A model generated the notes under the pieces. That model was given only the letters and a program-made list of their open reading frames with translations. It did no database searches and was not told the origin of the DNA. The translations under genes were made by a program, and so were the position numbers. A stretch of 64,000 bases of DNA, taken from positions 64,001 to 128,000 of the IMG/VR virus record IMGVR_UViG_3300045988_167206. The stretch is one strand, 5' to 3'. The stretch comes from a virus. Shown here piece by piece: positions 22,838 through 40,971 of this stretch. Within the stretch, counting starts at the first letter, position 1, and each line of letters opens with the position of its first letter.

Positions 22838-25800
22838 TTACCTATTCCGTCCGGTCAGTTTCTTCCAGTCCTTTGACATTTTCTTTGTGAAATCATCAAA
22901 CATAATACCACTCAGTTGATGTGCAAGATTCTTTATATCCAACTCACTGTCAATTCTGTCTACATTCAGATTGATCTCTGGATTAAAAGTAATATTCTGG
23001 TTCTGTACAGATGGAACATTATTCAGTTTCGCTCCATTGTTTCCGGTCATCATGTCCGTAAATTCATTCATAGAAGCAATGGAAGGTTTCAGCAACTTGG
23101 TAAATTCTTCTGTCAGGACAGTTTCTCCCGGTCTGGCTCCGATAAATCCGGTGTCACCATTGCGGATAATCGCATCTCCAAGCATTGTACCCATATCAGC
23201 CGGGATAAGATTACGGACAACTCCACCCTTGGAAAATCCAAAAGTCTGTAACTGCTTGAGCAGGTTTGTCTTCTGAGTTCCTGTCCATTTGCTATAGTTA
23301 CCCGGATATTTCAGTCCCAGAATCTTGGCAGCACTCACTAATTGAGCACCTGTAACATCTTTGCCCTTTTTCTTAAAATGCTGTATAAGTTCATGGTTAT
23401 TTTTATAGTCCGCTGGCTTAAAGGTTTTATTCTTCAGGTTTTTATACCACTTTGTCAGTTGATTCTTCTTGATGGATTTCTGAATCTGCTCATTAAACTT
23501 CTTCTTATCATTCAAGTCTTTGTCAGACTTTCCAAGGATCAGACTGTCTTTGATTTCCTGACGTTCCCCATATGAGAACTTGTACCCTGATTTATTCAGT
23601 GCGTCATTTACCGTCTTAGCATATTTATCATAGTTTTTCTGACGTACTGTAACATTAAAGGTTACAGCCGCAGCAGAAGAGACTACTGGATGCACAGTAA
23701 CTGTAGTTTTACCTGATTTTTTGCCAGTTACAATAAAGCTGTTACCATTTTTCTGAGCAGTAGCAATTGAACTGTCTTTTACTGTAAGCGTAAAGTTCTT
23801 CAGATTATCAGTAGCAGCGTTCTTGTAGTTTACCTTTACTGTCTGTTTCTTTCCAACATATATGGTTGCACTCTTTGGGCTTAGTGAAAGTGCAAGTTTA
23901 GCACTATAGGATTTACCATTCTGGTCATAGCCAATATTATTAGAAGCCTTACCAGCACTTTCGGAATCCTTGAGTGCTCCACTAATAGCAGCATCCGCTT
24001 TGGAATCACTTGGAATGCCAGAAGTATCAACATTGGTGTAATTTCCCGGATGATTCTTTGCTTCATTCACGGTTTCGTTGGTAGAATTCTTAATTGTATT
24101 GGCATTCATCAGATCTTTGAACAGATCGGCAGTCTTATAACCAGTTTCATCAAGAATCTTACTGATCTCATCGAAGGTTTCCTTGTAAGAATTCTTGACT
24201 TCAGAGAGCATATCATTGATGACAGACTTCTGAAGATCTGTGTTGGACTTCAGAGACTTTAAGGTGTTATCCAGTGCATCATCTGCTTTTTCGGACAGAT
24301 CATCATATCCTTTGGATTCCATATCAAGCTGATGCTCATACTTGGTATCTGCAAGATCTTCTTCCTTGTCTTTCAGATCAGCCTTGAGTTTCGCTAACTT
24401 AGCCTGTGCAGCAGCGTTAGTGGTTCCTTCAAGGGCAGCAATCTGTGCTTTGAGTGCATTGATATCTTTGGTCTTATCCTTAATGGTCTTATCGTATTCA
24501 TAGTAATCCTTCTTATTGTCAAGAGCTTTCTTACGCTTATCGATATTCTCCTGAAGCAGATCATTTTCTTTGGTGATCTTATCTGAATACATATCAAGCA
24601 GATTCTGCTGGCTGGAATATAAAGACTTGGATGTCTGTTGAATCTGGTTTAAGGCATTTTCTGATCGTTCTTTGTACTCATCAGCTGTAACCATACCGTT
24701 TTTCTTTAATTTTTCAAGTAAATCAAGTTCAGCGGTACAGTCAGAAATCTTCTGTTTATACGCATCCATTTCCTTATTGATGAGAGAGATATTTGCAAGC
24801 CCGGTATCTGTAAATGATCCATCATCGTTATAAAACGTATCAGAATCCATCATATCACGAAGATTTCCATAATCTTCAATCAGATCATCCAGTTTATCCT
24901 GGGCTTCATCAAACTGTTTAAATCTGAGATCAACAATGGATTTCTTCAGTTCAGCATTACTGTTTGCAGTTTCCAAAATCTTCTTGTCAAGTTCTGCAAG
25001 CTGATCTGCATATTCCTGATATTCAGCAGATCCTGCATTGAGTGTTAGCATTTTTTGTTGTACAAGATTCTTCTGTTCCTGCAATGCATTGATGGTGTTA
25101 TTATTTGTGGTGATCGCATTTCGGTAATCAGTCTCAGTGATACCTTTTGCAAAATCACCTGTCTTCGCGTCATAATAACGGTTGGCATCCTTATAGTCTC
25201 TGTACGCTGACTGTTTTTCTGACGCACGAGTGTATTTATCAGTCTTATACTGAGCAGCATTTGCGGCAAGCTTATCTAACTGATTGGTCAATTCAGCTGT
25301 AGCCTTTTTACTGTCATTTAAAGCTGTTCTTAGCTCTTCCAGACCTGCAAGAGCTTCTTTGTAGAAAGTAGAATTCACTCCGTACTTCTTCTTGATCTGA
25401 TTAAGCTGTTTCTGATATTCTTTAATTTCGGATGTTATCAGATTTGTCTGAGTGTTCTGGTTGTTTCTCTGTTTTATAATATTCTGATAATAACCAGAAC
25501 CAACTCCCTGAGAATTTCCAGCTTCAGAAGCCCAATCATTTAAGCTGCTAAGAGTGTTATTCTGATTCTCATATACACTTCTCAGAGCATCATATTTATC
25601 AGTTACATTGTCAAGTCTCTGCTGATATAACTCTTTTTCTTGTGATTTCAGGTCTTGAATGGCTTTGTCACATTCTACGATCTTGTCATACCATTTCTGA
25701 TAGGCTTCGACTTTGGACTTGTCTGTTTCACTCAAGGATTGTATGTCTACGGTTCCATCCTGTACTTTCTTTTTAAGAGCAGCAGATAAACCAATCTTCT

Positions 25801-28800
25801 TGGCATAATTATCAGATGCACGAACATATAAATTACGCCCTTTAATATAATCCTCCATCAGTGTATTTGAATCATTTATTGCTTTTGTCAGATAATTATT
25901 TTTAGTAGAAAGGACAGTAGAATTTTCTGATTTTGACTGAGCAAGATCAATGCGATTCTCAAATCTAGTTACAAGTCTTTCGAACCAATCAACAACGTTT
26001 TTCCATGGATCTTCCCAGCTTTTAGAAGAAGATGAACTTCCTCCACCAGATCCACCTGAAGAACCAGAGTTTCCACCACCACCGGAATTATTATTTCCAG
26101 AAGATTTAGTAGAAGAGGATTTTTTTGAAGAAGTATCTTTAAAATTAAATCCAGTAAGAGCATAAGCGTTACAGCCTAAACTTCCAGTGGCATAAGCCCT
26201 TGCATTACTAGAAGTTTTTCCATGCTCTAGTAAATCTTTTGTCTGAGAAGCATTAAATATAATGTCTCCCTTTTTAAGATTTTCAAAATGTGGACCACCT
26301 GGAAGAAGTGACCATACTCCATCACGAACAATTGATTCCGTACCTACTTCATTTGTGAGAGCTGTTTCATTTTTGCCTAAAGCAACATTTCCTCCAGCGT
26401 GAGCAGAAGAGAGTGGTTTCAAGTTGAGCATATTGTATGCAGTGCCATCTGCATGAGCTATAGAAGTCATTGTACCAGAAGCACTAGCACCTTTTGGCGC
26501 ACCTTCTACCTTTGCATGATATACAACTATTCCACTTTTATTTGGAGGAGTCCATGATGCAATATTACTAGCATTAACAATATAATTCACAACCCCTGTT
26601 TTGTCCGGTGGTTTATATGCTTGAACATCACTGTCTTCAACCGTATATTTAGCTTTAGCATCTTTGTCCTCTGGTTTATAAGAATCAACCTCAGCACTAT
26701 CTTTTTTAATAGTGGCATTAACAGTTATTTGTTTGTTTTGACCATTTAATTCGTCCGCTTTTGCATTAATAGCATCAAGTTCTTCTTGGTTTTGTACATC
26801 ACAAGTAATTGTTACAGGTGTATTATCTGGAACAGATTCCATAGCAGAAGTAAGATCTTCAACCTGATCCTCGCCGGTTACAGAAACATCTACTGTGGCA
26901 GTTGTGCCTTGTGGAATAGAAGCTAATGAATTTTTTAAATCATCTGTGCCTCCGGAGGTAGAGAGATTCGCCTCAATAGTATAAGTACTTCCAGACAAAT
27001 TCTGTAAGTCAGCCGACGTTTCTTCTGCTTCTTCCTGTGCTTCTTCAAGGCTAGAAGTATCGACTTCAGGTTTAAGAACACCCAATCCTTCAAGAGCCTG
27101 TACAAGCTGGTCTTTTGTTAGGCCGGCCTGATCAGCAAGATTCTGCAATGCATCTTCGGCTTGTTCCATACCTTCAACATTATAAGCACCATCACCAAGT
27201 TGGATTCCTTCAAGATCAGCGGCTGTATATTGTTTCAGAGCATTGAAATCAGCTTCAGTTGCTTCTGCATTTGCTTCATGAGCCTGTTTTACAGCTTCAA
27301 GAGAATCGGCGTATTCTTTGGCAGCAGTTGGATCAGAAATTCCCATTTCCTCTGCGGTAAGAGGAGAGTCAAATGTTCCAATGCCCTTATCGTGAAGCAT
27401 CTGATTAAAAGCATCTTCGTCAACTTCGAACTCAGGAGTTAATTTAATTTTATTATCCTTAGCTAATTGCTGGATACGATCGTACAATCCTTGAGCATAC
27501 TCCTGTTGCGCCGGATCATCTTTAACCTGTTGGTATTCTTTTGCAAAATCATTGATTGTCTGTTTTACAGTATTCAGATTTTGCACTTCACGGTCAGTAG
27601 CACCATTTACATATGTATCAAGAGCAGTATTAGCATCATTGACTTGATTCTTTAAATCATCTACAACTTGTGCTTGCTGTTCAATCGCATATTGTGGTGC
27701 ACCATTGGCAACTAATTCAGAGTACTTTTCTTGGGCAGAAATAAGCTCGTTAGTCTTTTCCGTAACATTAGCCTGTCCTTCAGCTACAGATGTAATGTCT
27801 GTAACAACAGCACCCATATCGTCATAACGTCCAAGATAATCTCTAAATTGTTCTTCTCCCATTCCGAGAGTTTTTGCGGCATCAGCGGAATCAGTAAATG
27901 CCATTTGCCATTGTTTGGAACCATCTTCTAGAGTTTTATAAGTAGCTAAACCTTTTGATTTAAGAAGATCAAGAAATTTCAATGGTCCAGATGCATCGTC
28001 TGTATAATATGGTTTCCATTTATTATAGTTTTCAATGAAATTATCTTCATCGCTAAACCCATAAGGGGAGAAGTAAGCAGCACCTTCTTTAAAATCATCT
28101 GTACCGGTTTCACCGTTATCGTACATTTCTTTTAAAGATTCTAACTTACTCTTTGTTGCTTTATAATGATCTCCTGCATTTGGAGTACTTTCAGCGTTGG
28201 CAGCTCTTTGCCATTGACTGGTCTGTTCCTGCATATTTTTATACTGAGCCATGTATTCATTTTGAAGATTCTTAAGTTCTTCAAGTTTTTGTTTTTCTGA
28301 CTCAATAATATTGCCATTGGAATCATAGATTTTCTTCTCTTGATCAGCAATCTGAGATGCAAAATCTTTTGTGACCATTTCATTTTGAGCTTTAGAAAGT
28401 TCCTGGAATCTATCAGTATTTAACTGTAATCCCTTTGCAGATCTTGTAAACAATCCATTTATATCAGTTCCCTGAGCAGTAAGATCACTAAACTGAGTAA
28501 CAAGATTCTTCACGGAGTCACTTGTTAATCCAGTTTCACTATTTGTTTCTCCAATAGCAGTACTCAAAGCACTGGCCAGATTTGTAACATCAGTAATAGG
28601 AAGATTCTGGATTTCTTCAAGCCATCCGGCCTGAGAAGCTTTCATATTCTCTATGGACATTTGAGCAGACTGGATTTGATCCTGGTATCCTTTTATCTTC
28701 TCATTGTCTTCATCAGTAAGAGGAGAGATACCTTTACTTTCTCTGATTGTACGGATGTTATCCTGGTAATCTTTAATCTGTTTATTCAGATTTGAAATCT

Positions 28801-31134
28801 GAGCATTACCATTTTCAACAAGATTATTGTAATCCTGTGCAGTTGCTTTCTGGTTGAATGCAGATTTATTATTCATTAGAGTCTGCATATCTGAAGCGTC
28901 AGTCTGAAGTCTGGTCAAATCTTTTGAGAGATTTTCAAGATCCTGTTCGTTTGCATCAAGACGAACCTGAACCTCAGTATCCTCAATAGCAGACTTCCAT
29001 TCATCGTAAGAAGCATTTGCCATAGAAGGGTCAAGGGATAGTTTAAGAATAGCCTGCATAGCTATTTCATTATCACCATATTCCGACATGAGCTTATTCA
29101 TTGTGCTTACAGCAGAATCTTTAGCTACAGTGCCCTTAGCATTATCAAGAATATTGGTTCTTACTGTTTTTTTGATATCATCCGCAGACATATCAAATCC
29201 TGCAGTATTAATACCATCCAAAATACTCTGAATATATCTATCAGCTTGAGCTAATTCCTTCGGATCAGTCGTATCTTTTACAGCATCACGAATCTTTCCA
29301 ATAGCAGTAGAAGCTTTATCAGTAGCAAGTTTCTGTAATCCTTGCTGTAAATTATCTGTTTCAGTAGCTAATTCTGGGAATTGCTGAATAAGATCTGTGA
29401 TATCAGAACTTTTCATATCACCGGATTTCAGAGAATCCATAGCAGTTTTGATACTAGAGATACTTGACTGGAAATTATCTGTTACGGTATCAATGTCTGT
29501 TGCTGTGTCTTCAGTTGAATTTTTGAAGAGAGAAGAGAATGTTTTAGAGGCATCTTCGGAAGAAGCTTTAGATTCTTCCATTGCTTTATTCCAATTGGAA
29601 GTAAGTGTACCTATTCCCCAATCATTCTCTTCAGGATCAAGACCATTATTCTGGAGATAATTCCAGAAAGTTTCTATATCTTTATCTGATTTATCCTTAA
29701 AAAATGCATCAGCGATTGAGCCGCCAGAAGTACTCGGAAGTTTTGACATAAATGCAAAAGTATCTTTAAGATTTTCTTTTACACCTTCAATATTTAATGC
29801 TTCCGGATCAACTATAGCCATGATATAAGATGCCAAATCATCTGCTGATATTTTCTTATCTCCAAGTGCTGATTTGAGATCAGAATAATCTTTATTACTA
29901 TTCAGAACATCAAGAATTCCCTGGGAACCTTTAGATTTGCCAATGTCCTCAAGTTTTGTCTGTAAGTCTGCATAATCAGCGAGAGCAAAAAGATTGTTTA
30001 GTTTGTCCTCTGTGTCGGAAGATGAACCTATGAGATTTGAGTAATTATCAATAAGAGAATTAACCTGGTCAATGGTACCCTGGTATTTCTTATCAAGAAC
30101 TGTACCATCATCTTTAAGCATACTCTGTGACTGATCTGAGATGTTAGAAATCATTTCAGAGAGTTCTGATTTTTGATTATCAATACCTTCTTGCTGTTTT
30201 TCAAGAGTTTTATTTTCCTCTTCAGTAATTAGGTCTATATTACCGCCATGACCTTTTTTGATATTTTCATAGGCGGTATCATATCTATCCTGAAGATGCT
30301 GGATATAATCCATTTTTGCCTGAGCTTCATCAAGATCATTAACATATACTTTGGCTTGAGGATTATAATTTCCGCTACCGTCAGAGAAATAATCCTGCTG
30401 CATAGATTTCTTATTTAGATCTTTTTGTGCAGCATTTGCCTCAGCAGTCTTAGCACTGTCGGCTAATCTTTGTTTCAATGATACTTGAGCACCAAGAAGT
30501 TCATTTTGATCTTGAAGATTATTTAATTCTTGACTCTCTTCTAGTGATCTGTTTTCTTTTACTCGAAGCTCTTGAATACGATCTTGGTTAGTTTCGTATG
30601 CAGATTGTGCGGTTTCAAGATCAGATTGAGCTGTTTCATTTTTTTTCTGAGCTTTTTGGTATTTCTTTGTGGTGGTTGCTTTTGTAAGATCAAATTGGTT
30701 GTCAAGACCTTTCCATGCTAATGTACCAACCCCAATAGCACCTGCAATTCCAAGAATAGGTAAAAGAGGTTTAATGAATGCTAATAAACCAGAGCCTGTA
30801 TCTTTTAGAGATCCTAATAAACCTGCACCTATGGCTACATCTCCAACTTTACCGGCTCCTCCGGCGGTATAACCGATTTTAGCCATCATGTCTTCGGTAA
30901 TATTTTCTTTACCAAACGCTTTAACCATAGCTTGATACGCAACACCAGAGTCTAAATTTTTTCCATATTTGGTTATCCAATTTACACCTTTACTTGCATT
31001 ACCAGATGCGGCTAATGCAGTTGCTAAACTAACAACATCTTCTCTGGTAGAAACACCATTAAATAAACGTGTTGCATTATTGAATTTTCCGATTTTCTTT
31101 AATGACACTGTTGAGTAAATATGATACAATAAAT
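22838..31134 (-). CDS. tape-measure protein, third coding block (open frame of about 2765 codons)
   Basis: The frame is open from 31134, after an in-frame TAA at 31135-31137. There is no SD and no ATG near its 5' end.
- It opens with Gly-rich hydrophobic TMP-like segments (GAGLLGSLKDTGSGLLAFIKPLLPILGIAGAIGVGTLAWKG).
- More than 2 kb of coiled coil follows.
- It also has a Ser/Gly linker, a Big_2-like Ig domain and two copies of a TMP C-terminal-type motif. Confidence 0.7.
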
Positions 31135-31161
31135 TTATTTAATATAGGAAGGAAGATGTTT

Positions 31162-31710
31162 ATGGCTCTTATAACTTGTCCAGAATGTGGTCAAAAAATT
31201 AGTGATAAGTCTCCTGCATGCATCCATTGCGGATATCCTTTACAAGAAATAAAAAAATATGAAACTATATGGAATGGCCATGACATATCTAAAATTAATG
31301 AATATTTAGATAGTCTTAATGCTAATGAAAAGCAAGATTTTATTTTGTTCTGTGAATATATAGAAGATCGTAATAAACCATTGGTCGATCCAACAAAAAA
31401 AAATACAAATAAACCATTTCAAGGAGAATATTATAATAAATTTTATGATTTTATGGCAGAGCTAGGATATTATTATAAAATATCAAATGATGATGCCGGT
31501 AAATTCATCTTAGATTATTTACGCAGCAAAAATTATACCTCTCCTCAACCATCAACTCAAACCAATCAAGTCCGTTGTCCAAAGTGTGGCTCTACATCAA
31601 TCACAACAGAGAAGAGAGGATTCGACCTTATGTGGGGATTCCTGGGATCTGAATGGGTTACATACAATGTATGCCAGAAGTGTGGATACAGGTGGAAGAT
31701 TGGAAGATAG
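31162..31710 (+). CDS. double zinc-ribbon protein (about 182 aa)
   Basis: The preferred start is MALITCPECGQKISDKSPACIHCG at 31162, after TAGGAAGG. The C-terminal ribbon is RCPKCGS...CQKCGYRW. It lies on the opposite strand to all flanking genes. Confidence 0.6.
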   Translation: MALITCPECGQKISDKSPACIHCGYPLQEIKKYETIWNGHDISKINEYLDSLNANEKQDFILFCEYIEDRNKPLVDPTKKNTNKPFQGEYYNKFYDFMAELGYYYKISNDDAGKFILDYLRSKNYTSPQPSTQTNQVRCPKCGSTSITTEKRGFDLMWGFLGSEWVTYNVCQKCGYRWKIGR

Positions 31711-31730
31711 AGAGATAGGAGAGAAATATT

Positions 31731-33014
31731 ATGGGAAGTCATATATGGGGTAATATATATCTGTATTGTTGGGAAAATAAAATTGATTTTCGACAGGTAT
31801 TCAACAAGCTTTTGAATACTGAGCTGGAAGCATATAAAGAGGGTTGCGAACAATTCTTGGTTCCTTATACATACAATAAAAATAGTCAATTTAACAGAAG
31901 AAAGCTTGTTGGGTCTACATTAGAGCTTGATGTGGATGTATTAACTTCACATTTTCACATTCCTATTGAAGAAATTTTTAATCCGCGTAATTATCTAGAA
32001 AGATTAATAAAATTAATGAAAACAGTTTCGTATGATTGTAGATCAGATGCAGAATATGAATTTTTCCATTATAAAGACAAATCTCTGCAATTTCGTATTA
32101 AGTATGAAACAATTTACAATGAAAATTATGAAATCGGGGCTAATATTCCTGTTGAGTATCGTTTTTCCAAATATTATAATGAAGCTACTCATTCGTTCCA
32201 TTATCGTATTATATTAAATCCGAATTTTCTCCTATCATTTTCTTGTACATCAGGAGATATCAGTATGGCATTTTACAATCTCAATGATTATGTTAATTTC
32301 GAATTAATCTGTTTATACGATGGGGATGCTGATATTATCGCAAATTATTTTAAAGAAACATCAAAATATGATGTTTTTACAGAATATAAATATAAAGAGA
32401 AAGTTGCAGATAACGGAATTACGTGGATTTCCCGTACTGATGAAATTCTTTCAGAGATATCCAGTGATGACTATCGGATCATTGACTTCAAATGTATTGT
32501 TGTAAAATCTGCAATACGTAAATGTGATAATGAAGAACATCATACTAAAATTATAAATGGCATTTTCTTTACAATATCAAGAAAAACTGGAAATGTTAAA
32601 TACACAATAATTCCTTTAGTATATTGCCAAGAATGTAATGTTTATTTTATGTATGATTTTGAATATAATAGTTTATGTATGCAAGGAAGACCTCTTTGCA
32701 AAATCTATAATCACCTACATAAATCTGGTTCAGCAGATATATTTTCACAGTTAAATACAGAGTCTATTTTTAAAGTATGCGGTTATACGGTTGATGTAAA
32801 TGAGGGGTTATCAGATAAGGCTAGACATAATCTTTTGGACTTCCTTATTAATAGAAAAATTGTAACAGTATTGCAAACATTAAATTTTCTACAGTGGCTC
32901 ATCAACAGTAGAAAAAATAACTTAAATATGTATAATGCTGTACAAAAATGGGAGAATGATTTTTCTTATATAAATGAAAAGTATAATTCTTCACAAAATG
33001 TTATTGTTGTATAA
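31731..33014 (+). CDS. hypothetical protein (427 aa)
   Basis: GGAGAG lies 8 nt before the ATG. Has a Cys/His cluster (CDNEEHH...CQEC) and a helical C-terminus (LSDKARHNLLDFLINRKI...AVQKWENDFSYI). No family recognised. Confidence 0.6.
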   Translation: MGSHIWGNIYLYCWENKIDFRQVFNKLLNTELEAYKEGCEQFLVPYTYNKNSQFNRRKLVGSTLELDVDVLTSHFHIPIEEIFNPRNYLERLIKLMKTVSYDCRSDAEYEFFHYKDKSLQFRIKYETIYNENYEIGANIPVEYRFSKYYNEATHSFHYRIILNPNFLLSFSCTSGDISMAFYNLNDYVNFELICLYDGDADIIANYFKETSKYDVFTEYKYKEKVADNGITWISRTDEILSEISSDDYRIIDFKCIVVKSAIRKCDNEEHHTKIINGIFFTISRKTGNVKYTIIPLVYCQECNVYFMYDFEYNSLCMQGRPLCKIYNHLHKSGSADIFSQLNTESIFKVCGYTVDVNEGLSDKARHNLLDFLINRKIVTVLQTLNFLQWLINSRKNNLNMYNAVQKWENDFSYINEKYNSSQNVIVV

Positions 33015-33135
33015 TGCAATTATACATAAAATAATTATTTTGACTGTTTATTTGTTTTATTAGGCTTCACAAAAATACCATGACATTTTATTTTGTCTGA
33101 TTTTATAATTTGTGATTTTTCTTTACTGGTAAACA

Positions 33136-33597
33136 TCAAATCCAGTTTACGTTCCATGATACTACCTCCTCGAATGTGAAATCTGGGAATACCTTTTTAA
33201 CTATCATAAAAGTTAATATTTTAGCCTTTGTTTCGTCTTTTTCTTGAAAATAATAATGTACAAGTTCTTCTATAAAAATAAAAAGTTTCATTTTGTCATT
33301 ACATTGTTCAATTTTTTCTATTGCATATATAATTAATTGAAAACATCTTCCATAAGCTATGGACATATTCTCTTTTATAGAAAAACTACCGTCTCTTGTA
33401 AAAATTAAATTTACAGATAAAAAATTGTTTGGATCAATTTCTTTTTCATATAGCACTTTACTTAAGACTTCAAGCCCTTTTGTAAATAAATTAGCTGTTT
33501 GTTCTGGCATTGGATATAAAGCATTCATAAAGATGCAATTATTAAAATAAGGCGGTGCAACAGGTGCAAAAGATTGTACAGAATTTTCTAAAATCAT
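33136..33597 (-). CDS. hypothetical ORF inside the second intervening region (153 aa)
   Basis: Starts right after the structured 5' part, with AAAGGAG 6 nt upstream of the ATG. This is the same layout as the ORFs in the first intron. No nuclease motif recognised. Confidence 0.5.
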   Translation of the reverse strand: MILENSVQSFAPVAPPYFNNCIFMNALYPMPEQTANLFTKGLEVLSKVLYEKEIDPNNFLSVNLIFTRDGSFSIKENMSIAYGRCFQLIIYAIEKIEQCNDKMKLFIFIEELVHYYFQEKDETKAKILTFMIVKKVFPDFTFEEVVSWNVNWI

Positions 33598-34047
33598 AAT
33601 ATGTGCTCCTTTATGGAATTTACTTAATCATATCATAAAAGAGCTAAATAATAAATAATTTTCTCTTCGTTTACAGCAGAAGAGTAGTGCTGAGTGGGGT
33701 TCACCACTATTACAGTGGAACATTCATTAAAAGCATATGTATTAATTCGGACCATACATATACTCTGAGGAAGGGTGCTCTCTCTACACTTCCTGATTAT
33801 TCATATGCTTCCCTCACCATAACTTGCGTTATTGCTGCTAGTGTATCACATATTACTAAAACGTTAATCAGGTTGGTACATGCGTTACTCACAGGCTTGC
33901 GCCTACTTCACTGTAAACAGAATAGTGAGCTTCGATGTTTTAATCCTCTATTTATTTATAGCCGCTAATCTCCATACATTGATATAATCTTTATATAGAT
34001 AGGCTCATTATTAAAATCGGAAAAATAATTGTAACCCTGAATTTGGG

Positions 34048-34422
34048 TTAACCTACGGCTTTTGTAATACCACCGGCGTTTAAGAATTTTAATCCAGCCA
34101 TAGTAGCATTTTTTACGGTCATGGCACCAAAAATTGCAGTAATTAGTGCCGGGATTGGTCCTAAAGTTTTTTCAAGTCCAGTGAATCCTTCAGTTAAGCT
34201 ATGTACGAAATCTAAGGCTCCACCAACTTGATCTGACTGATAAAAGTTAAGCCAGAACTCATCCATCTGAGTTTTAATAGCTTGTACTTTACCACTAAAC
34301 GATTCCATGTATTTCTCTTGGTTTGCTTCTGCATTACCTTGAGTAGTGGTAGCTTCTTCAGCTAAACTCATGGAATCTGTGAATGCGTCCAATATGTTCT
34401 TGAATTTTGAAGTTTGTCTTGT
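34048..34422 (-). CDS. tape-measure protein, second coding block (about 124 codons)
   Basis: The frame is open from 34422, after a TAG at 34423-34425. It reads TRQTSKFKNILDAFTDS...LGPIPALITAIFGAMTVKNATMAGLKF. This is the expected continuation of the TMP core that breaks off at 36005. There is no SD or ATG at its 5' end. Confidence 0.6.
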   Translation of the reverse strand, partial: TRQTSKFKNILDAFTDSMSLAEEATTTQGNAEANQEKYMESFSGKVQAIKTQMDEFWLNFYQSDQVGGALDFVHSLTEGFTGLEKTLGPIPALITAIFGAMTVKNATMAGLKFLNAGGITKAVG

Positions 34423-34478
34423 CTAACTTGTTAAGCATGGTTCGCAACACCATACTGATATTGTTAATTTATCTCCTT

Positions 34479-35393
34479 TTATATTTCTATTAAGGCTCCA
34501 TATTTAATAAAACCTTCAAACAATATATCTTCAATATAAATTTGATCCCAAAATGGAATACGAATTAAATGAATTTTATTATCTTTACAATATTGAGTCT
34601 TTATATTGTCTCGTTTCTTTGTATTTATCATATTGCTATAAGCCTCTTCGTGTGCCATTGTGTTACCTAATGTTACTGGCATATAATGAAATTCTCCATC
34701 ATATTCAATTGCAATATTAGAATCAGGTAAGTAATAATCAAACGGCAGAGGGTTTTTATCTCTACAATCAGAGAATCTTTTTTGTGGTTCGTATTTAATT
34801 CCCCATTTATCTAAAATATCTCCAATCATACTTTCATAATATGTTTTTTTACAATAAGGACAACCAGGACATTTTGATAACGTATATCCTTCTTTAACCT
34901 GGACACCTTTATCTTTATGTACGTTACATATATATTTTACATATGTATATCCATTTTCATGATAATGAGAAACATAGGTAAAATTGTGTTTTTCACATTC
35001 TTCTTTCCAATGATCGACATTGAATATTTTATTTTTCAGTGTACGTTCTCTACCACAATAATAGCACCCTCTATCACGCAGAAATTCGCATAATTTAATT
35101 TCTTGAATACCTTTATCCTTATGTTTTGTACAGATATATTTCATTTTAGTTGTGTAATTTTTGTATTCCTTATCAATTAATTCATATCCTCTATCAGAAA
35201 ATAATTTATTTACTTCATCATAAGTATATTTTTTAGTATTATGAATTACTTTCTTTTCACGAATTAACCCCATACGTCTTCTTTTGGTTATTATTGCACC
35301 TTTAGTAGTTCCGATATTTTTTGCTAATTCATCATCAAATTGTATTTTCCAATTTTCTTTTAAATAGTTTTCTTTATCAGATGTCCATTTCAT
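34479..35393 (-). CDS. homing-endonuclease-like protein (304 aa): HTH, two zinc-ribbon modules and a PD-(D/E)xK-like C-terminus
   Basis: - N-terminal W..ENYLKENW...LAKNIGTTKGAIITKRRRMGL is an HTH.
- There are duplicated modules: YICTKHKDKGIQ...CYYCGR and YICNVHKDKGVQ...CPGCPYCKK.
- The C-terminal PLPFDYYLPDSNIAIEYDGEFHY is typical of Vsr/DUF559-type endonuclease folds. Confidence 0.6.
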   Translation of the reverse strand: MKWTSDKENYLKENWKIQFDDELAKNIGTTKGAIITKRRRMGLIREKKVIHNTKKYTYDEVNKLFSDRGYELIDKEYKNYTTKMKYICTKHKDKGIQEIKLCEFLRDRGCYYCGRERTLKNKIFNVDHWKEECEKHNFTYVSHYHENGYTYVKYICNVHKDKGVQVKEGYTLSKCPGCPYCKKTYYESMIGDILDKWGIKYEPQKRFSDCRDKNPLPFDYYLPDSNIAIEYDGEFHYMPVTLGNTMAHEEAYSNMINTKKRDNIKTQYCKDNKIHLIRIPFWDQIYIEDILFEGFIKYGALIEI

Positions 35394-35414
35394 GTATTAT
35401 CACTCCATTTATTA

Positions 35415-35609
35415 TCAATTTTTTGTATAAAAAATCGCCAATGCTTCAAATAACTTTGACGTTTTTGTATATTTGTATGTAGTTACTTCATTTATCACTT
35501 TTATAAATGAAGGTTGTATACCAACACTCCATAAATACTCTTTTTCAGGAGTATATTGAGTGGAATATTCTTTATCAAATTTTTTCATAAATTTATTTAA
35601 AATTAACAA
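35415..35609 (-). CDS. small ORF (64 aa) at the 5' end of the intron ORF region
   Basis: TTG start, or an internal ATG at codon 8. Ends 21 nt before the endonuclease-like ORF. It could be a detached N-terminal piece. Confidence 0.3.
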   Translation of the reverse strand: MLILNKFMKKFDKEYSTQYTPEKEYLWSVGIQPSFIKVINEVTTYKYTKTSKLFEALAIFYTKN

Positions 35610-36004
35610 TATCCTTATACTTTCATATAAGTACAGACTATTTCTTCACCTACCGACCTTTACGGTTTAGGGTGTCCTTTTCCATTTAACGGGTTTTCAC
35701 CGACTTCATTAGCGATTAAGCCGTACTTCTATTGATTTGGATATTCAGGATTCCCACCTTTATTTTATAGCTCAATAAGAACATTTCCAAATCCCGACAT
35801 GGGAATAGTCGTTGAATGTTCACCCTCGTCTCAAGTACCATATGATCTATGGAATACGTTAGGGTGCTTCACTGCATGAACAGCCAATCCTTACGTTGTC
35901 AAACCTTCATAATCTAGTTTCCTGATTATTGTGGTGTAAGGCTCTAAGGCATTACCTGCAATTAAAATCATTCCAGTATGAATTTCTTCATACACAGTCC
36001 AACA

Positions 36005-39000
36005 TTAGGCTGCTACATCAAATGCGATTTTTGCTTGCTGTGCATCAGTCAAATCATTCCATTTGGATTTCAGTTCGGATAATACAGTGATAATACCACG
36101 ATCTGATCCGTCTGGATTATAGACATCAACACCTACTGAATGTAAAGAAGCAGAAGCATTTGATAAATCTTCATTACTTACCTCATCTGCATATTGAGGC
36201 ATTTTACCGACTTTTGTGGTTCTCGTGATAATCGTTTTAATTGCATTACCAATTGAACTTCCATCTTCACGGGTTCTTTCAGCTACTTTTGCAGAAATCG
36301 CAGCTAACTGCTCATATGACATTCCTGCATCAAAAGCAACCTGACCTGATGCCTGAACAGCATCTGTCATTACTTTTATACCTTTAGCGTAATCCATACC
36401 CACGTTTGCTGAAATCTTATCCAATACGTCTACTACATGCATAGAAGCATCAGCGGCAGAAGTGGATCCATCTTCTAACATATGGAACTGCTGTAAGATA
36501 CCCTGTACCTGGTCAGCAGCAGTAGAAGCGTCAACACCACTTAAGTTACTCAAGATAGCAGTCGGTTTTGCAGTTTCCTGAATTTCTTTCGAAGTGGTAT
36601 TCATATTTGCATAGATCTGATAAATGTCCATTGTATTATCAAGAGACATAGAGAGATCTTTTGCCATGTCAACTGCAGAACTACCTAAATTCTGTAATTG
36701 ACTTTGTGACATATCCATTGTATAACTAATGGTTGTCAGTGCTTTATTATAATCCATAAATGTATTAAAGCCTTGTTTCATCTCATTAATGGCTTTATGC
36801 ATTATCTGAATGTTTCCAACATAAGATGTAATATCACCAATAGCACCTTTAAAGTTTCCAGATACTAATCCTTTAAGTCCCTGACTAAATGAAGAAAATC
36901 CAGTAGAAGTCTTAGTGGTATTTTGATACATAACACGAAGACTATCATTGGCTTTTTCAATGTTTCCAGTGAGTTTTACAACGTCTCCAGATGCAGTCTC
37001 AAAATTCATTGTGACTTTTCCGGTTGCATCATTTACAGACTGTGATATTTTATTGGTTAATCCAATTGAAGCAGCATAATCGGTCAATGCCTTTGAAGCA
37101 TCAGCAGTATCTTTGATCTGATGTGCCGTATTCTCAATCATTGTACCTTTACTTGTGGTTTTATTGAGTCCATCAGAAGTCTTTCCAAATTTTTCCATTG
37201 AAGCTACAAGCTCATCAATTCCTTTACTATATGCTTCAATGTCTTTTTGACCTTTTGTGCTATTCTTAAATGTATCATTAAGCTCTTCATACCTTGAATG
37301 AAAACCATCTAATTTTGCTTGGTAAAAACCTGTTTTATCCCCAATGTTTGTATATTTAATTAATTTCTCATGTGCTTGAAAATAATCCAAATCTTTTACG
37401 CCAAGGCCATTTTGGTAATAATCTTTATATGCTTCCGTTTGGTTACGTAACTCAAGCATACGTGAAACATAATCATTTACAGAAATAGATCCATTTTTAA
37501 ATTCTGTGGTAGCAGTATCAAGACCACTAGACAAAGAAGAAAATTGTGACTTAAAACTTTCAGATGCTCTTCCAGCATTTTGAATCTTGGAAACAAAAGA
37601 ATCAATATCTTTAGATAAAGAAGCAAAATTAGAATTTATAGTATTATTTTTATTTATGTTAGATTGTGAAATGAGATCTTGCATTTGAGTATCTGCATAA
37701 TCTTTTCCATAGATTTGAGAAACTTCTTTATACATATTCTCATAACTTTGTTTTGCTCTTGCTTGAGCAGCAGATAATAACATATGTTCTTGCTGAGAGT
37801 ATTTATCCGATGTAGAAAGTCCGATCAATTCTTTTTCAGTTTTAGCCTGAAGAGAATATTGTTCTTTCATATCATCAACTAAATTTTTATGATATTTACT
37901 TTCAGCGGCCTGAGCAGAAGTATAAGCCTTTGCATATTCGTCTGCTTTTTTTGCATTTAATATATTATTATTATTATTTTTGTCATTTTCATATGTATTT
38001 TTATAAAAAGATTCGACTTCTGTTTTTAATGCAGAAACTCTTTTTTTAGCTTCTTCAAATCGTTGAGCTACAGCAGTATCAGTGGAATTAATCTTGTATT
38101 CACTTTGTGCATTAACTAAATCTGCCTGTGCTTGTTTTAGCTCTTTAACTTTAGCGATAGCTGAATCATATTGTGACGTAAAATCAGCAGTTTTTTGTTT
38201 GAGCACATCTTGTTGAAAAGCATCATAAACATTTTGTTCAGCTTGGCCAAGTTTGCTTTTCTGTGTGTTAAAAGCATTTACACGATCTTCACCAAGAATA
38301 CCTTTGTTTTTCTCAATAAACTCATCAATATCTCCTAAACTTTTCTGCTTCTGATCTATTTCTTTTCGAATATTATTAATTAAATCATTAGAAGTACCTT
38401 TAGATTTAGCAGAAGATAACTCTTTATTTTTCTTTTCAAGTTCAGAAAGACCAGACATTAAATCTTCATACTGAGAAATAATTTGATCTGAAATTTTATT
38501 TTGAGAATAGTTTCTTAATGATGCATTAGATTTTTCTGCTTTTCGCATCGCCTCGTCAAATTCATCAATATCTTTTCCTTGAGATTCAAGCAAGGTTTTA
38601 TTCTTAGATATAAAATCGCTTATTTTAAAAGCGTTTGCAGTTTTTTCTAATGAAATTTTTTGATCTTTTAAATCTCTTAAATCACTTTGTAATTTTGTTC
38701 TATCTATGCCAGTATTAGATTTATCATCTAATTGTTTTTGTATATCAAGAATTTCTTTATTAACCTGGTTAAGTTTTTGAGCTTGTTTAACAGCTGTAGT
38801 ATATTGTCCTACGATAGACTGCGTTTTCTGCTTTTGAGTTGCCTCACGTTCCTCCTGATAGGCCTTTTTATTAGCATTAACAGCGATATTATTTTGATCA
38901 CGAAGTTTGGCCCAATTTGGTTTCATCCGTTCAGCAACTTGCTGTCTATATTGTGTCATACTATAATCTGAAGTAGGATCTTGATCATAAGCTCGTGCGA

Positions 39001-40957
39001 CGCTATCATGTTCTTGCTGCTGAATTTGTAATCTTTGAATCTCAGATTTTAAATTAGCTATTTTCCCGGAATCTCTTTGAGATTGTGGTTTTGTCATTTC
39101 AGCATATAATTTTTGTCTGTTAGATACTAAGGCAGCGGTAGTTTTAGCTGAATCCTGCTCTAAAGTTTCAAATTTAATACCAGTCCCAATTGTTGCACTC
39201 CAGGTGTTATTTGCCTGACTATAAGTTTGAGTCAAAGTATGAACTTTTCGATTTACATCTTTATATACTTTTGTAATTTTTTGACCATTACTAGCTGTTT
39301 TTTCGGCCAGTAATTGCATATCATCGAAGTTAGGAGTTCCTGGTACTGAAGGTAAAGTAGGATTTCCTGATGTTGGAGGAGTTGTTGGGAAAGTCGGAAT
39401 ATTTGAATTTTTTGAAGAATTAGATGCGACCGGTGTAGCAGGTATAGCTTTCAATCTTGGACCACGAGAAACTTTATATGCTAATTTTTCTTGTTTAGTA
39501 GCATCTTCCTGTGTGCGAGTTGTATCTTGCACAGCAATACCAAGTCTTTCGGCAGAATCAGCCATCTTATCCATATTTTCTGTGGTATTTCCTACAGTAG
39601 AAGCCACTACATTATTTATGTGATCTGTAGCTGTGTTAATAGTGTCTGCAGCTTTTTCTGCTTTTTTGGCTTGGGCAGTAGGAGATTTTTTACTATGGGT
39701 ACTTTTTTTAGAAGTCTGATTAGATTGGATAGCAGGTGTTTCTACAACTGGATTTCTAATAGCTTCTTCTAGACGAGGATAAGCTTCAGACCAAAATTTA
39801 CCATTTTCAGGATCATCTGATAAAGTTTGAATAGCAGTATCTAAATTTTTTAATTGCTCGCCTGATAGTCCGGTTCCACCTTTATTTTTATATACAACAA
39901 AATTTCTGAATAATTTTGCCAGCATAGTAGTGCTAAAATCATAAATACTTTTATCTCCACTTAAAACTTTTTCAAAATCTTTTTTTAAGATAGAAGAAGC
40001 TTCATCTGCTGTTACTGACGAGATATTTTTTAACATTTTATCTCTAGCACTAGATAAACTTTTATTTCCAGTTGTATTAAAGGCTTTGTCAGCTTTAATT
40101 TTCTGAGTAGCTTTACTTGTTTCAGTAGCAATAGTATTAATTCCATTCTGCATATTACTTATAGCAGCCTGAACCATATCTTCACTACCACTTTCAATAG
40201 CAGCCTGTAATGAATCAAGATCAAAAGCAGAAGCTATATAAGATTTAGAATCTTCTACAGAACTTTCTAATGTTTTACCTATTCCGATCAAGTTTTTATT
40301 ACCAGGTCTGGTTATATGGCTATCTTCTGGAATAGAATCTTTCATTTTACCAAAAAGAGCTTTGATATTTTTCTGATTTTGTTCATAAGTCAAAAGAAGT
40401 TTTTCCTGAGCTTTTACAGCTTGAATATAAGCAGCCATATCTGTAAAATCAGCGGTGTTAAGAGGTTGTGCATTTTCTTGCTGTGCTAACGCCCATTTTG
40501 TAGCTCTTGAATATTCATAGCGTTTTCTATATAATGCTTTATATTCATCAGAATCAACAGCCAGGGTTTTTGGCATTCCGTCACGAACACCTTTTATTTC
40601 ATTTGCATTTAATCTATATAAATTTGCCGGCAAAGTCTGAAAACTTGCATCATACCCACTTTTAACCGCTTTATTAATTATACTTTCTACTTGTTTGGCT
40701 TGAGCTGTAATTGCTTTTTTAGTAGAAGCAGAAAGAGAAGATTTACCAGTTGCTTCTATAATAGCTGGAATTTTTACAGTTGTCTTTTGTAATTTATCTA
40801 ATGCAGAAGTATCTGTCTTTAATTCAGCAGTTATTGTAGATTTCTTTCCGTCTAATTCATCAGCAGTGTTTTTTAATTCTAATAATTTTTCAATTGCTCT
40901 ATCAACAGCAGCGTCAGCATCAACGCCTACACGAACTCGTTTATCATATCCACTCAT
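36005..40957 (-). CDS. tape-measure protein, first coding block (about 1650 codons)
   Basis: The preferred ATG is at 40957, after AGGTGA; the track starts at a GTG at 40966. A long coiled coil comes first, then a TP901-type TMP core (MDYNKALTTISYTMDMSQSQLQNLGSSAVDMAKDL...TAILSNLSGVDASTAADQVQGILQQF...). The block ends abruptly at ...LTDAQQAKIAFDVAA followed by UAA. Confidence 0.8.
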   Translation of the reverse strand: MSGYDKRVRVGVDADAAVDRAIEKLLELKNTADELDGKKSTITAELKTDTSALDKLQKTTVKIPAIIEATGKSSLSASTKKAITAQAKQVESIINKAVKSGYDASFQTLPANLYRLNANEIKGVRDGMPKTLAVDSDEYKALYRKRYEYSRATKWALAQQENAQPLNTADFTDMAAYIQAVKAQEKLLLTYEQNQKNIKALFGKMKDSIPEDSHITRPGNKNLIGIGKTLESSVEDSKSYIASAFDLDSLQAAIESGSEDMVQAAISNMQNGINTIATETSKATQKIKADKAFNTTGNKSLSSARDKMLKNISSVTADEASSILKKDFEKVLSGDKSIYDFSTTMLAKLFRNFVVYKNKGGTGLSGEQLKNLDTAIQTLSDDPENGKFWSEAYPRLEEAIRNPVVETPAIQSNQTSKKSTHSKKSPTAQAKKAEKAADTINTATDHINNVVASTVGNTTENMDKMADSAERLGIAVQDTTRTQEDATKQEKLAYKVSRGPRLKAIPATPVASNSSKNSNIPTFPTTPPTSGNPTLPSVPGTPNFDDMQLLAEKTASNGQKITKVYKDVNRKVHTLTQTYSQANNTWSATIGTGIKFETLEQDSAKTTAALVSNRQKLYAEMTKPQSQRDSGKIANLKSEIQRLQIQQQEHDSVARAYDQDPTSDYSMTQYRQQVAERMKPNWAKLRDQNNIAVNANKKAYQEEREATQKQKTQSIVGQYTTAVKQAQKLNQVNKEILDIQKQLDDKSNTGIDRTKLQSDLRDLKDQKISLEKTANAFKISDFISKNKTLLESQGKDIDEFDEAMRKAEKSNASLRNYSQNKISDQIISQYEDLMSGLSELEKKNKELSSAKSKGTSNDLINNIRKEIDQKQKSLGDIDEFIEKNKGILGEDRVNAFNTQKSKLGQAEQNVYDAFQQDVLKQKTADFTSQYDSAIAKVKELKQAQADLVNAQSEYKINSTDTAVAQRFEEAKKRVSALKTEVESFYKNTYENDKNNNNNILNAKKADEYAKAYTSAQAAESKYHKNLVDDMKEQYSLQAKTEKELIGLSTSDKYSQQEHMLLSAAQARAKQSYENMYKEVSQIYGKDYADTQMQDLISQSNINKNNTINSNFASLSKDIDSFVSKIQNAGRASESFKSQFSSLSSGLDTATTEFKNGSISVNDYVSRMLELRNQTEAYKDYYQNGLGVKDLDYFQAHEKLIKYTNIGDKTGFYQAKLDGFHSRYEELNDTFKNSTKGQKDIEAYSKGIDELVASMEKFGKTSDGLNKTTSKGTMIENTAHQIKDTADASKALTDYAASIGLTNKISQSVNDATGKVTMNFETASGDVVKLTGNIEKANDSLRVMYQNTTKTSTGFSSFSQGLKGLVSGNFKGAIGDITSYVGNIQIMHKAINEMKQGFNTFMDYNKALTTISYTMDMSQSQLQNLGSSAVDMAKDLSMSLDNTMDIYQIYANMNTTSKEIQETAKPTAILSNLSGVDASTAADQVQGILQQFHMLEDGSTSAADASMHVVDVLDKISANVGMDYAKGIKVMTDAVQASGQVAFDAGMSYEQLAAISAKVAERTREDGSSIGNAIKTIITRTTKVGKMPQYADEVSNEDLSNASASLHSVGVDVYNPDGSDRGIITVLSELKSKWNDLTDAQQAKIAFDVAA

Positions 40958-40971
40958 ATTAATCACCTACT

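Follow-up and report, generated by a model that had tools for sequence, protein, structure and literature searches.

Comparative evidence for a probable divergent group I-type intron with antisense cargo in the tape-measure gene of a temperate gut phage

How can the reading frame of a phage tape-measure protein (TMP) stop, give way to almost 3 kb of sequence with genes in both orientations, and then resume? The question is raised by a 64,000 nt stretch of the viral record IMGVR_UViG_3300045988_167206 (positions 64,001–128,000; hereafter the window, to which all coordinates refer), where the TMP gene lies on the minus strand and is split into three blocks. For the interruption between the second and third blocks, called intron 2 below, the original prediction hesitated between a large intron that had acquired antisense cargo and a genuine gene split. 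The evidence presented here favours the intron. We propose, with a probability of about 0.8, that positions 34050..31106 form one cis-spliced, divergent group I-type intron in the TMP gene of a temperate gut Lachnospiraceae/Ruminococcus phage, the splicing itself being deduced from sequence comparisons.

Block 1 of the gene (40966..36008, minus strand) has the C-terminal end ..AFDVAA. Block 2, or exon 2 (34051..34422, minus strand), comprises 125 codons (TRQTSKF...ITKAVG) and is contiguous with exon 1 in the relatives that lack the first intron. It had been described as closing at GGU-UAA (34048-34050), with which the sequence agrees: the last codon GGU occupies 34053-34051 and the UAA follows at 34050-34048. 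The long frame of the third block is open from approximately 31138 to 22838, and the TMP frame was believed to resume at 31134. The relatives place the beginning of exon 3 at the UCA of position 31105 (G↓UCA, the arrow marking the junction), so that exon 3 covers 22838..31105 on the minus strand (2,755 codons and the stop codon), and the open frame 5′ of 31105 is intron sequence, not exon. The 2.9-kb interruption is real but its limits, first set at 34047..31135, had to be moved. When the boundaries were drawn from GGU↓U(A/G)(A/G) and G↓UCA, which are common to the relatives, the whole intron 2 measured 2,945 nt (31106..34050, minus strand). It begins with UAACCC, the first three bases being the in-frame UAA, and finishes with CAGUG, the last base being the terminal G. 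Joining GGU↓UCA, with all three exons included, gives a single open reading frame (ORF) for a TMP of 4,532 aa (..ITKAVG↓SLKKIGKF..). The predicted spliced RNA reads ...GCCGUAGGU joined to UCAUUAAAG..., and the predicted peptide at the junction of the joined TMP is ..ITKAVGSLKKIGK...

A protein query spanning the junction, run against a collection of 5.8 billion proteins, retrieved 35 relatives. Each of them aligned with block 2 or with block 3, and no protein of this collection spanned the junction. All the block-2 proteins finished with ..(A/V)VG and all the block-3 proteins began with (M)SL(K/S)KIG. The DNA of the relatives could be grouped into clades W (that of the window), W′, B, C and D. 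Exon 2 ended in every clade with GGU or GAU followed by a stop codon, and the frame resumed at G↓UCA; the G before UCA was invariant and the two bases ahead of that G varied (triplets GUG, UAG or AUG). Clades W, B and C have kept, at the nucleotide level, the first bases of exon 3, UCAUUAA(A/G)NAAAAUCG. In clade B (L002, L003, L012, L013 and L015), the conserved codons SLSKIGNLKKA came directly after an in-frame TAG, with no start codon, and gene callers placed the start 11–26 codons downstream, losing the conserved codons. No Shine-Dalgarno (SD) sequence was present ahead of exon 3 in any clade. Independent translation from an internal start, which had been considered for the third block, fails to explain it because the clade B TAG precedes exon 3 and a start codon is absent.

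The approximately 390 nt behind the stop codon showed about 75% conservation, equal to that of the adjacent coding DNA. The first 350 nt had been said to be free of ORFs; they contain two mechanical ORFs, one of 40 aa on the minus strand and one of 93 aa on the plus strand, and the segment is conserved as RNA rather than as protein. A helix model, obtained with RNAalifold on 31 sequences and then by manual assignment, delimits a putative ribozyme core at 33664..34050 (minus strand, as are all the core elements below), comprising the P1 loop hairpin, the guide sequences and helices P2 to P9.1. The helices follow one another in the order P1, P2, P3, P4, P5 (P5a, P5b), P6 (P6a–c), P7, P3′, P8, P7′ and P9, which is the canonical group I order, and invariant G.U pairs set the strand of the structure as the TMP sense strand. 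In the alignment of the 31 sequences (A3), 99.1% of the cells were paired, with 18 compensatory pairs versus 0–2 in slid controls. A second alignment (A7) of 16 sequences from five clades, to which W′ and D had been added, showed 96.4% of paired cells and 33 compensatory pairs, versus 3–5 in the slid controls.

Compensatory changes were present in all the helices of the P4-P5 domain (33878..33938), i.e., P4 (33938-33933/33884-33878), P5 (33929-33925/33892-33888), P5a (33920-33911) and P5b (33904-33893, with a GNRA loop). The extended P6 domain (33786..33877) consists of P6, P6a, P6b and P6c, with a GNRA loop on P6c. P6 reads CCUGAUUA/UAAUCAGG in the window versus CCAUACU/AGUAUGG in contig L043, and P6b and P6c covary too. 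P7, formed by GAGCA (33776..33780) and UGUUC (33722-33718), exists in three compensatory versions (GAGCA/UGUUC, GCGCA/UGUGC and GUGCA/UGUAC). The segment from P8 to the 3′ strand of P7 (33718..33766) contains the P8 hairpin (33766-33730), where variation is limited to one side, then J8/7 (UAAUGAA, 33729-33723) and the P7 strand itself. The 5′ strand of P3, GAGGA (33944..33948), would pair with UCCUC (33771-33767) in a proposed pseudoknot with P7. Initial candidates for P3 (AUUAAAA/UUUUAAU) and P7 (AGAGUA/UACUCU) were replaced by helices that covary. The P7-like pair put forward earlier (33927-33922 with 33710-33705) had to be abandoned as well: in the covariation-backed model, its first segment overlaps the 5′ strand of P5 and its second segment P9.

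The covariation extended into the exons. The P1 exon strand UAGGU (34051..34055, minus strand), of which U 34051 is the splice-site U, pairs with GCCUA (34004-34000), the P1 strand of the internal guide sequence (IGS, 34000..34004), forming a U.G pair at the junction with the exon. Both bases of the pair between U 34051 and G 34004 are invariant. Elsewhere in P1, clade D shows UAGAU/GUCUA, a change from G-C to A-U, and clade B a change from A-U to G.U. A second exon-binding guide, CGGCU (33960..33964), is located after P2 and pairs with exon nucleotides −10 to −6, AGCCG (34056..34060). It was found in four covarying versions, AGCCG/CGGCU, UGCCG/CGGCA, AGUCG/CGACU and AAACC/GGUUU, and the exon pairing via P1 and this second guide covaries in four clades. 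Such two-part binding of the exon is not known from any group I intron described so far.

The remote 3′ end is tied to the core by two further pairings. Immediately 5′ of the IGS, the P10 guide UAAUGA (34005..34010) is complementary to the start of exon 3, UCAUUA (31105-31100). Both sides are changed in clade D, where UAAGUG(G) faces UCACUUA; this is a single independent change, read from the sequences. The 5′ strand of P9.0, CACUGU (33712..33717), comes directly after P7, and its 3′ strand, ACAGUG (31106..31111), consists of the last 6 nt of the intron, the terminal G 31106 included. Pairing was observed in 96.7% of the P9.0 cells and five of the six pairs were compensatory, compared with 20–60% pairing in slid controls (ten distinct combinations). 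Fully complementary versions are CACUGU/ACAGUG in the window, CUAUAG/CUAUAG in clade B and CAUGAG/CUCAUG in clade C, with strands that lie 1.2–4.2 kb apart depending on the relative. Because P9.0 connects the distant 3′ end to the core, we consider the whole interval as one intron.

The string GAUUUUAAU..GAGCCU had been noticed in both introns of the gene. It is indeed present, exactly twice in the window (34018-34001 and 35969-35939), for a shuffle expectation of 0.02, the pattern having been picked after the fact. A common role was rejected: the string corresponds to J3/4-P4 in intron 1, according to the Rfam alignment, and to the linker, the P10 guide and the IGS in intron 2.

Most of the testable features of group I introns are thus found in intron 2: a U at the end of the 5′ exon paired to a G of the IGS, a terminal omega G ahead of UCA in every clade, a P10 between the start of the 3′ exon and the bases 5′ of the P1 strand, a P9.0 that is weak or absent in clade D, and the core order P3-P4-P5-P6-P7-P3′-P8-P7′ with compensatory changes in P4, P5, P6 and P7. 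The features of mobile introns are another matter. The distribution is not sporadic, all the relatives being filled at the site, and a tandem copy in clade D is the only hint of past mobility. No nuclease family was recognised for the three ORFs of intron 2 in Pfam, PHROGs, NCBIfam and PADLOC, and the predicted folds show no nuclease. An IStron would have IS200/IS605- or IS607-type transposase ORFs between the ribozyme and the 3′ splice site, and the same four resources gave no transposase in the window insert; an IS66 copy exists in the equivalent TMP gap of one distant relative. The characters of group II introns (GUGYG...AY ends, a domain V and a reverse transcriptase ORF) do not fit either, since the ends are UAACCC..CAGUG and the Pfam scan showed no reverse transcriptase domain.

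Several observations weigh against a group I-type intron. The covariance-model scan foreseen in the original prediction was negative: the Rfam model RF00028 gave no match at E ≤ 10 with the 423 nt core of the window or with a 520 nt clade D copy, and intron 2 stayed unmatched in Rfam whether 64 kb, 5.4 kb or 423 nt were searched, the cut-offs being the gathering score and E ≤ 10. With the same settings, RF00028 matched intron 1 at 38.2 bits. We use the label "divergent group I-type" because the curated model is unmatched although most of the testable features are present. The single-sequence folding z-score is only −1.68, and for this reason the structural evidence is comparative. The P3 strands GAGGA/UCCUC are complementary but invariant in all the 16–31 sequences, so that covariation is silent either way, and RNAalifold favours a nested UUC/GAA pairing over P3. 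By eye, clade D has no evident extended P9.0, with at most 2 bp in L043 and none for copy 1 of L122. Both the window and clade C have an in-frame GUG or AUG just before exon 3, and independent initiation is possible there. The hairpin at the start of the intron (34050-34032), followed by a U-rich run and conserved in all clades, has a weak intrinsic terminator score; it could attenuate read-through into the intron. Finally, the hunt for an intron-less allele, which combined the junction protein search with two viral and two metagenome scans, did not find any among approximately 110 contigs and the 5.8 billion proteins, and the insert was present in 51 of 51 viral contigs. Phage GenBank records contained no DNA relative of intron 2, and the uninterrupted TMP of Enterocloster phage PMBT24 (about 29% identity) was too distant to fix the junction.

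Some of these observations would be expected if the TMP were made as two polypeptides, one from blocks 1 and 2 and the other from block 3, the RNA being a 3′ untranslated region (UTR), a terminator or a regulatory element and the opposite-strand genes an inserted cassette. Such a gene split would account for the stop codon seen in every relative, the missing contiguous allele, the GUG or AUG ahead of exon 3 in the window and clade C, the terminator-like hairpin and the silence of Rfam. We regard it as unlikely. It is at odds with the clade B TAG, where no start codon precedes the conserved codons, and with the absence of an SD sequence before exon 3 in all clades. Moreover, a UTR element has no reason to covary with exon nucleotides −10 to −1, nor with six nucleotides ending at the point of frame resumption 1.2–4.2 kb away. 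The chances are similarly small that the RNA is a self-splicing or processing ribozyme that removes the insert but belongs to a new class, similar to group I in layout only. Several hallmarks of group I speak against it, namely the terminal G, the U.G pair at the 5′ site, the P10 adjoining the IGS, the P9.0 right after P7 and the order of the helices; what it would explain is that RF00028 recognises intron 1 and not intron 2, that exon binding is bipartite, that P1 is closed by a hairpin instead of a loop, and that P3 does not covary.

A last alternative, excision of the 2.9-kb cassette at the DNA level before late expression, as for the skin element or other gene-interrupting prophage-like elements, appears highly improbable. 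In its favour, the hosts are lysogens and an integrase lies beside a truncated TMP in one relative, but the window insert contains no recombinase (Pfam, PHROGs, PADLOC and NCBIfam) and no direct or inverted repeats exist at the two boundaries. The insert is also kept in all of the 51 viral contigs, and excision would leave the RNA covariation unexplained.

Under the preferred interpretation, a group I-type intron, we propose the following course of events. The late TMP transcript would read through the entire 2.9 kb and its first 390 nt or so would fold into a catalytic core, P1 to P9. The ten last nucleotides of exon 2 would be held by two guides, the IGS, with the U.G pair at the splice site, and the extra guide after P2. 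After cleavage at the 5′ site, presumably with a G cofactor, the distant 3′ end would be recruited beside P7 by the 5–6 bp P9.0, and by P10. The terminal G 31106 would then dock and the exons would be ligated to encode the 4,532-aa protein, while the UAA in the first intron codon would halt ribosomes on unspliced RNA. The interior, from the core to the 3′ end, would serve as a cargo bay for one sense ORF and two antisense genes, the latter driven by an extended −10 promoter on the opposite strand of the last 30 nt of the intron.

The genes of this interior correspond to those originally predicted. Directly after the core, the sense ORF (33136..33597, minus strand, 153 aa) starts at 33597 behind a good SD sequence, AAAGGAG. 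It matches phrog_33355, a family of unknown function, and is confined to the clade of the window. The first of the two opposite-strand genes (31731..33014, plus strand) encodes a 427-aa protein with 17 homologue clusters, none of them functionally named; Pfam, PHROG, PADLOC and NCBIfam assigned no function to it, and its AlphaFold2 model (predicted local distance difference test score of 77) had no significant fold match in the PDB. The other gene (31156..31710, plus strand) starts with the ATG at 31156 or at 31162, in an ORF open from 31102, and encodes two zinc ribbons (Pfam Zn_ribbon_3 and Zn_Ribbon_1). AlphaFold2 and Foldseek indicated generic zinc ribbons only, with a weak resemblance to the two-ribbon layout of TFIIS/Rpb9 (E 0.006) and no significant PDB match. 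Across the whole cargo, no nuclease, transposase or defence family was found in Pfam, PHROGs, PADLOC and NCBIfam. The G+C content of the cargo is 28.5%, versus approximately 36% in the core and the exons.

All the clades have the zinc-ribbon gene beside the 3′ splice site, and in clade D it encodes the same two ribbons. Its products share 42–44% identity between clades W, B and C; both ribbons are kept and the helical middle is variable. The family comprises 590 clusters; the gene is likewise found at this place within TMP gaps of less closely related phages, and exists free-standing beside toxin-antitoxin genes near a prophage end. The rest of the cargo depends on the clade, with the 153-aa and 427-aa ORFs in that of the window and small ORFs in clades B and C. 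A promoter-like site precedes the zinc-ribbon gene on the plus strand (31102..31130; ATGACA, 17 nt, TG-n-TACAAT). The extended −10 element of the window is TGATACAAT at 31122-31130, and the −35-like ATGACA (31102-31107) straddles the 3′ splice junction. The motif TGnTAn(A/T)AT was found in 20 of the 23 distinct 3′ tails, 8–17 nt inside the intron end, with an SD sequence and an ATG following. Because they have their own extended −10 promoter, the antisense genes could be expressed apart from late transcription, for instance in the lysogen, and expression from the prophage is plausible. A more tentative idea, to which we give rather less than even odds, is that the TMP introns are fixed safe harbours for accessory genes. 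The zinc-ribbon gene, its promoter and the 3′ splice site would be one conserved module, possibly encoding a new kind of intron-keeping protein; the variable neighbours (elsewhere SocA/Panacea, NUMOD or IS66) would be expressed from the prophage without harm to the essential late gene; and the ribozyme, with its bipartite exon-binding site, would represent a group I subclass not described before.

Across the relatives, the length of intron 2 varies from 1,587 to 4,633 nt. The intron is carried by genomes of Ruminococcus sp. AM36-2AA, Frisingicoccus and Lachnospiraceae, and its presence in these bacterial genomes indicates that the phages are temperate; Ruminococcus sp. AM36-2AA is a cultured host with the clade B version. 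Some contigs show particular arrangements. The clade D contigs L122 (1-3408) and L102 have two tandem ribozyme copies about 3 kb apart, each behind an exon ending in ..NLD. The 3′ exon of the upstream copy has only seven codons (SLKNIAL*); behind it comes a 195-aa ORF, equipped with an SD sequence and an ATG of its own, which ends at the second intron. This looks like a duplication of the intron with its flanks, or a trace of past mobility. In two independent contigs, L004 (5590-8010) and L005, the ribozyme is reduced to its 3′ half, starting with the P6c loop, and is accompanied by the zinc-ribbon gene and exon 3. The remnant is joined to an unrelated Beta-CASP gene, and what corresponds to exon 3 is fragmented into several ORFs. 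The arrangement is probably that of a decayed prophage; trans-splicing was ranked as less likely, given the fragmented exon 3 homologue. In L002 (4595-8987) and L003, the TMP starts only at the equivalent of residue ~1330 and adjoins a tyrosine integrase and a 630-aa gene, within a 130-kb contig that bears bacterial genes; this reflects either a truncated prophage or an integration boundary inside the TMP gene.

More distant phages, L129–L131 (L129 5890-9302), present the succession of a TMP N-terminal part, a structured RNA, cargo, an antisense zinc-ribbon gene and a TMP C-terminal part. The ribozyme of these phages, at the same TMP site, differs from that of intron 2; its R/S elements look canonical by eye (GAGACUG...CAGUCC), and Rfam misses it as well. 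As cargo, they have SocA_Panacea-domain proteins, a NUMOD1 protein or an IS66 element.

The first interruption of the gene, intron 1 (34423..36007, minus strand), is an ordinary group I intron detected by RF00028 (E 2.5e-8), with classical P/Q/R/S elements. Its ORF of 304 aa (34479-35393, minus strand) is endonuclease-like, with matches to the endonuclease families phrog_559 and phrog_9084. The empty site is exact in relatives (FDVAA↓TRQ), P0005 reading ..FDVAATRQTSKF... The 5′ exon ends in C rather than U (GCC↓UAAUG), and an unannotated stretch of Staphylococcus phage CF5 shares 75% identity with part of the core. The close relatives L006–L016 (e.g., L006 6846-8000) are devoid of intron 1; their TMP gene is interrupted at a different site, about 230 codons upstream, where that of the window is continuous. 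This other interruption contains a 268-aa ORF with a Pfam GIY-YIG domain in L012–L015; for L006–L011, no Pfam match is on record. The TMP gene family has therefore at least three intron positions, two of them sporadic and one occupied in every relative. Tail length amounts to about 1.5 Å per TMP residue, and the spliced 4,532-aa TMP (22838-40966) would correspond to a tail of approximately 0.7 µm. Elsewhere in the window, ten tRNA genes (Leu twice, Tyr, Trp, Ser, Thr, Gly, Met, Pro and Asn) were present on the minus strand between 57620 and 63544.

The group I intron of T4 nrdD (sunY) is said, in work by Michel and colleagues dating from 1992, to have a remote 3′ splice junction. The resemblance with intron 2 lies in a core at the 5′ end, an ORF downstream, and a far 3′ splice site recruited via P9.0 and P10. 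The insert described here is about three times longer and houses three genes, of which the two antisense ones have their own promoter; it has no homing endonuclease, a P9.0 of 5–6 bp and an extra exon-binding guide.

Other containers of genes are comparable in part. IStrons, in which a group I ribozyme is fused to an insertion sequence, reach up to 2.6 kb and are found in Clostridia and their phages (PMC4227781). They likewise have a 5′ ribozyme and protein-coding cargo between the P9 domain and the 3′ splice site (PMC4227781). However, the cargo of intron 2 is devoid of transposase, the IStron ribozymes belong to IA2 with P7.1 and P7.2 whereas the core of intron 2 has neither helix, and intron 2 occupies one fixed site in one gene, the sole extra copy seen being the clade D tandem. 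Group I introns occur at several positions per gene in the TMP genes of Bacillus cereus-group prophages (PMC2504315). The host gene is the same, and three positions were recognised here, but intron 2 carries antisense genes and is unrecognised by Rfam. The sporadic TMP introns compared here (intron 1 and the GIY-YIG intron of the relatives) are missing from some genomes, whereas intron 2 is in every relative found. In eukaryotes, nuclear rDNA group I introns may contain antisense His-Cys homing-endonuclease genes (PMC9548176), i.e., a protein gene opposite to the ribozyme strand. The antisense genes of intron 2 encode a zinc-ribbon protein and a protein of unknown function with no nuclease signature, within a protein-coding gene of a phage. 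The giant ND5-717 group I intron of corallimorpharian mitochondria harbours housekeeping mitochondrial genes, and its removal by back-splicing has been reported (PMC6545197). Both introns would act as containers for ordinary genes, ND5-717 in mitochondria and intron 2 in a phage.

Phage introns are usually viewed as small selfish elements with at most one same-strand homing endonuclease. Intron 2 is unusual in several respects: all the relatives found, which span a large group of human-gut prophages, have it; its length is 1.6–4.6 kb; and it carries independently promoted antisense genes and a variable cargo. The novelty resides in separately promoted antisense genes other than endonucleases within a phage intron, in the presence of the intron in every relative found, in the long P9.0 helix and the second exon guide, and in the blindness of the standard models to it. 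If splicing is true, a whole family of phage group I-like introns escapes the current covariance models, and because of this gene callers would split such TMP genes into two or three false genes. The RNA would be a natural ribozyme that uses a long P9.0 helix to locate a 3′ splice site at a distance of kilobases, and the intron would be a neutral insertion platform for accessory genes within an essential structural gene.

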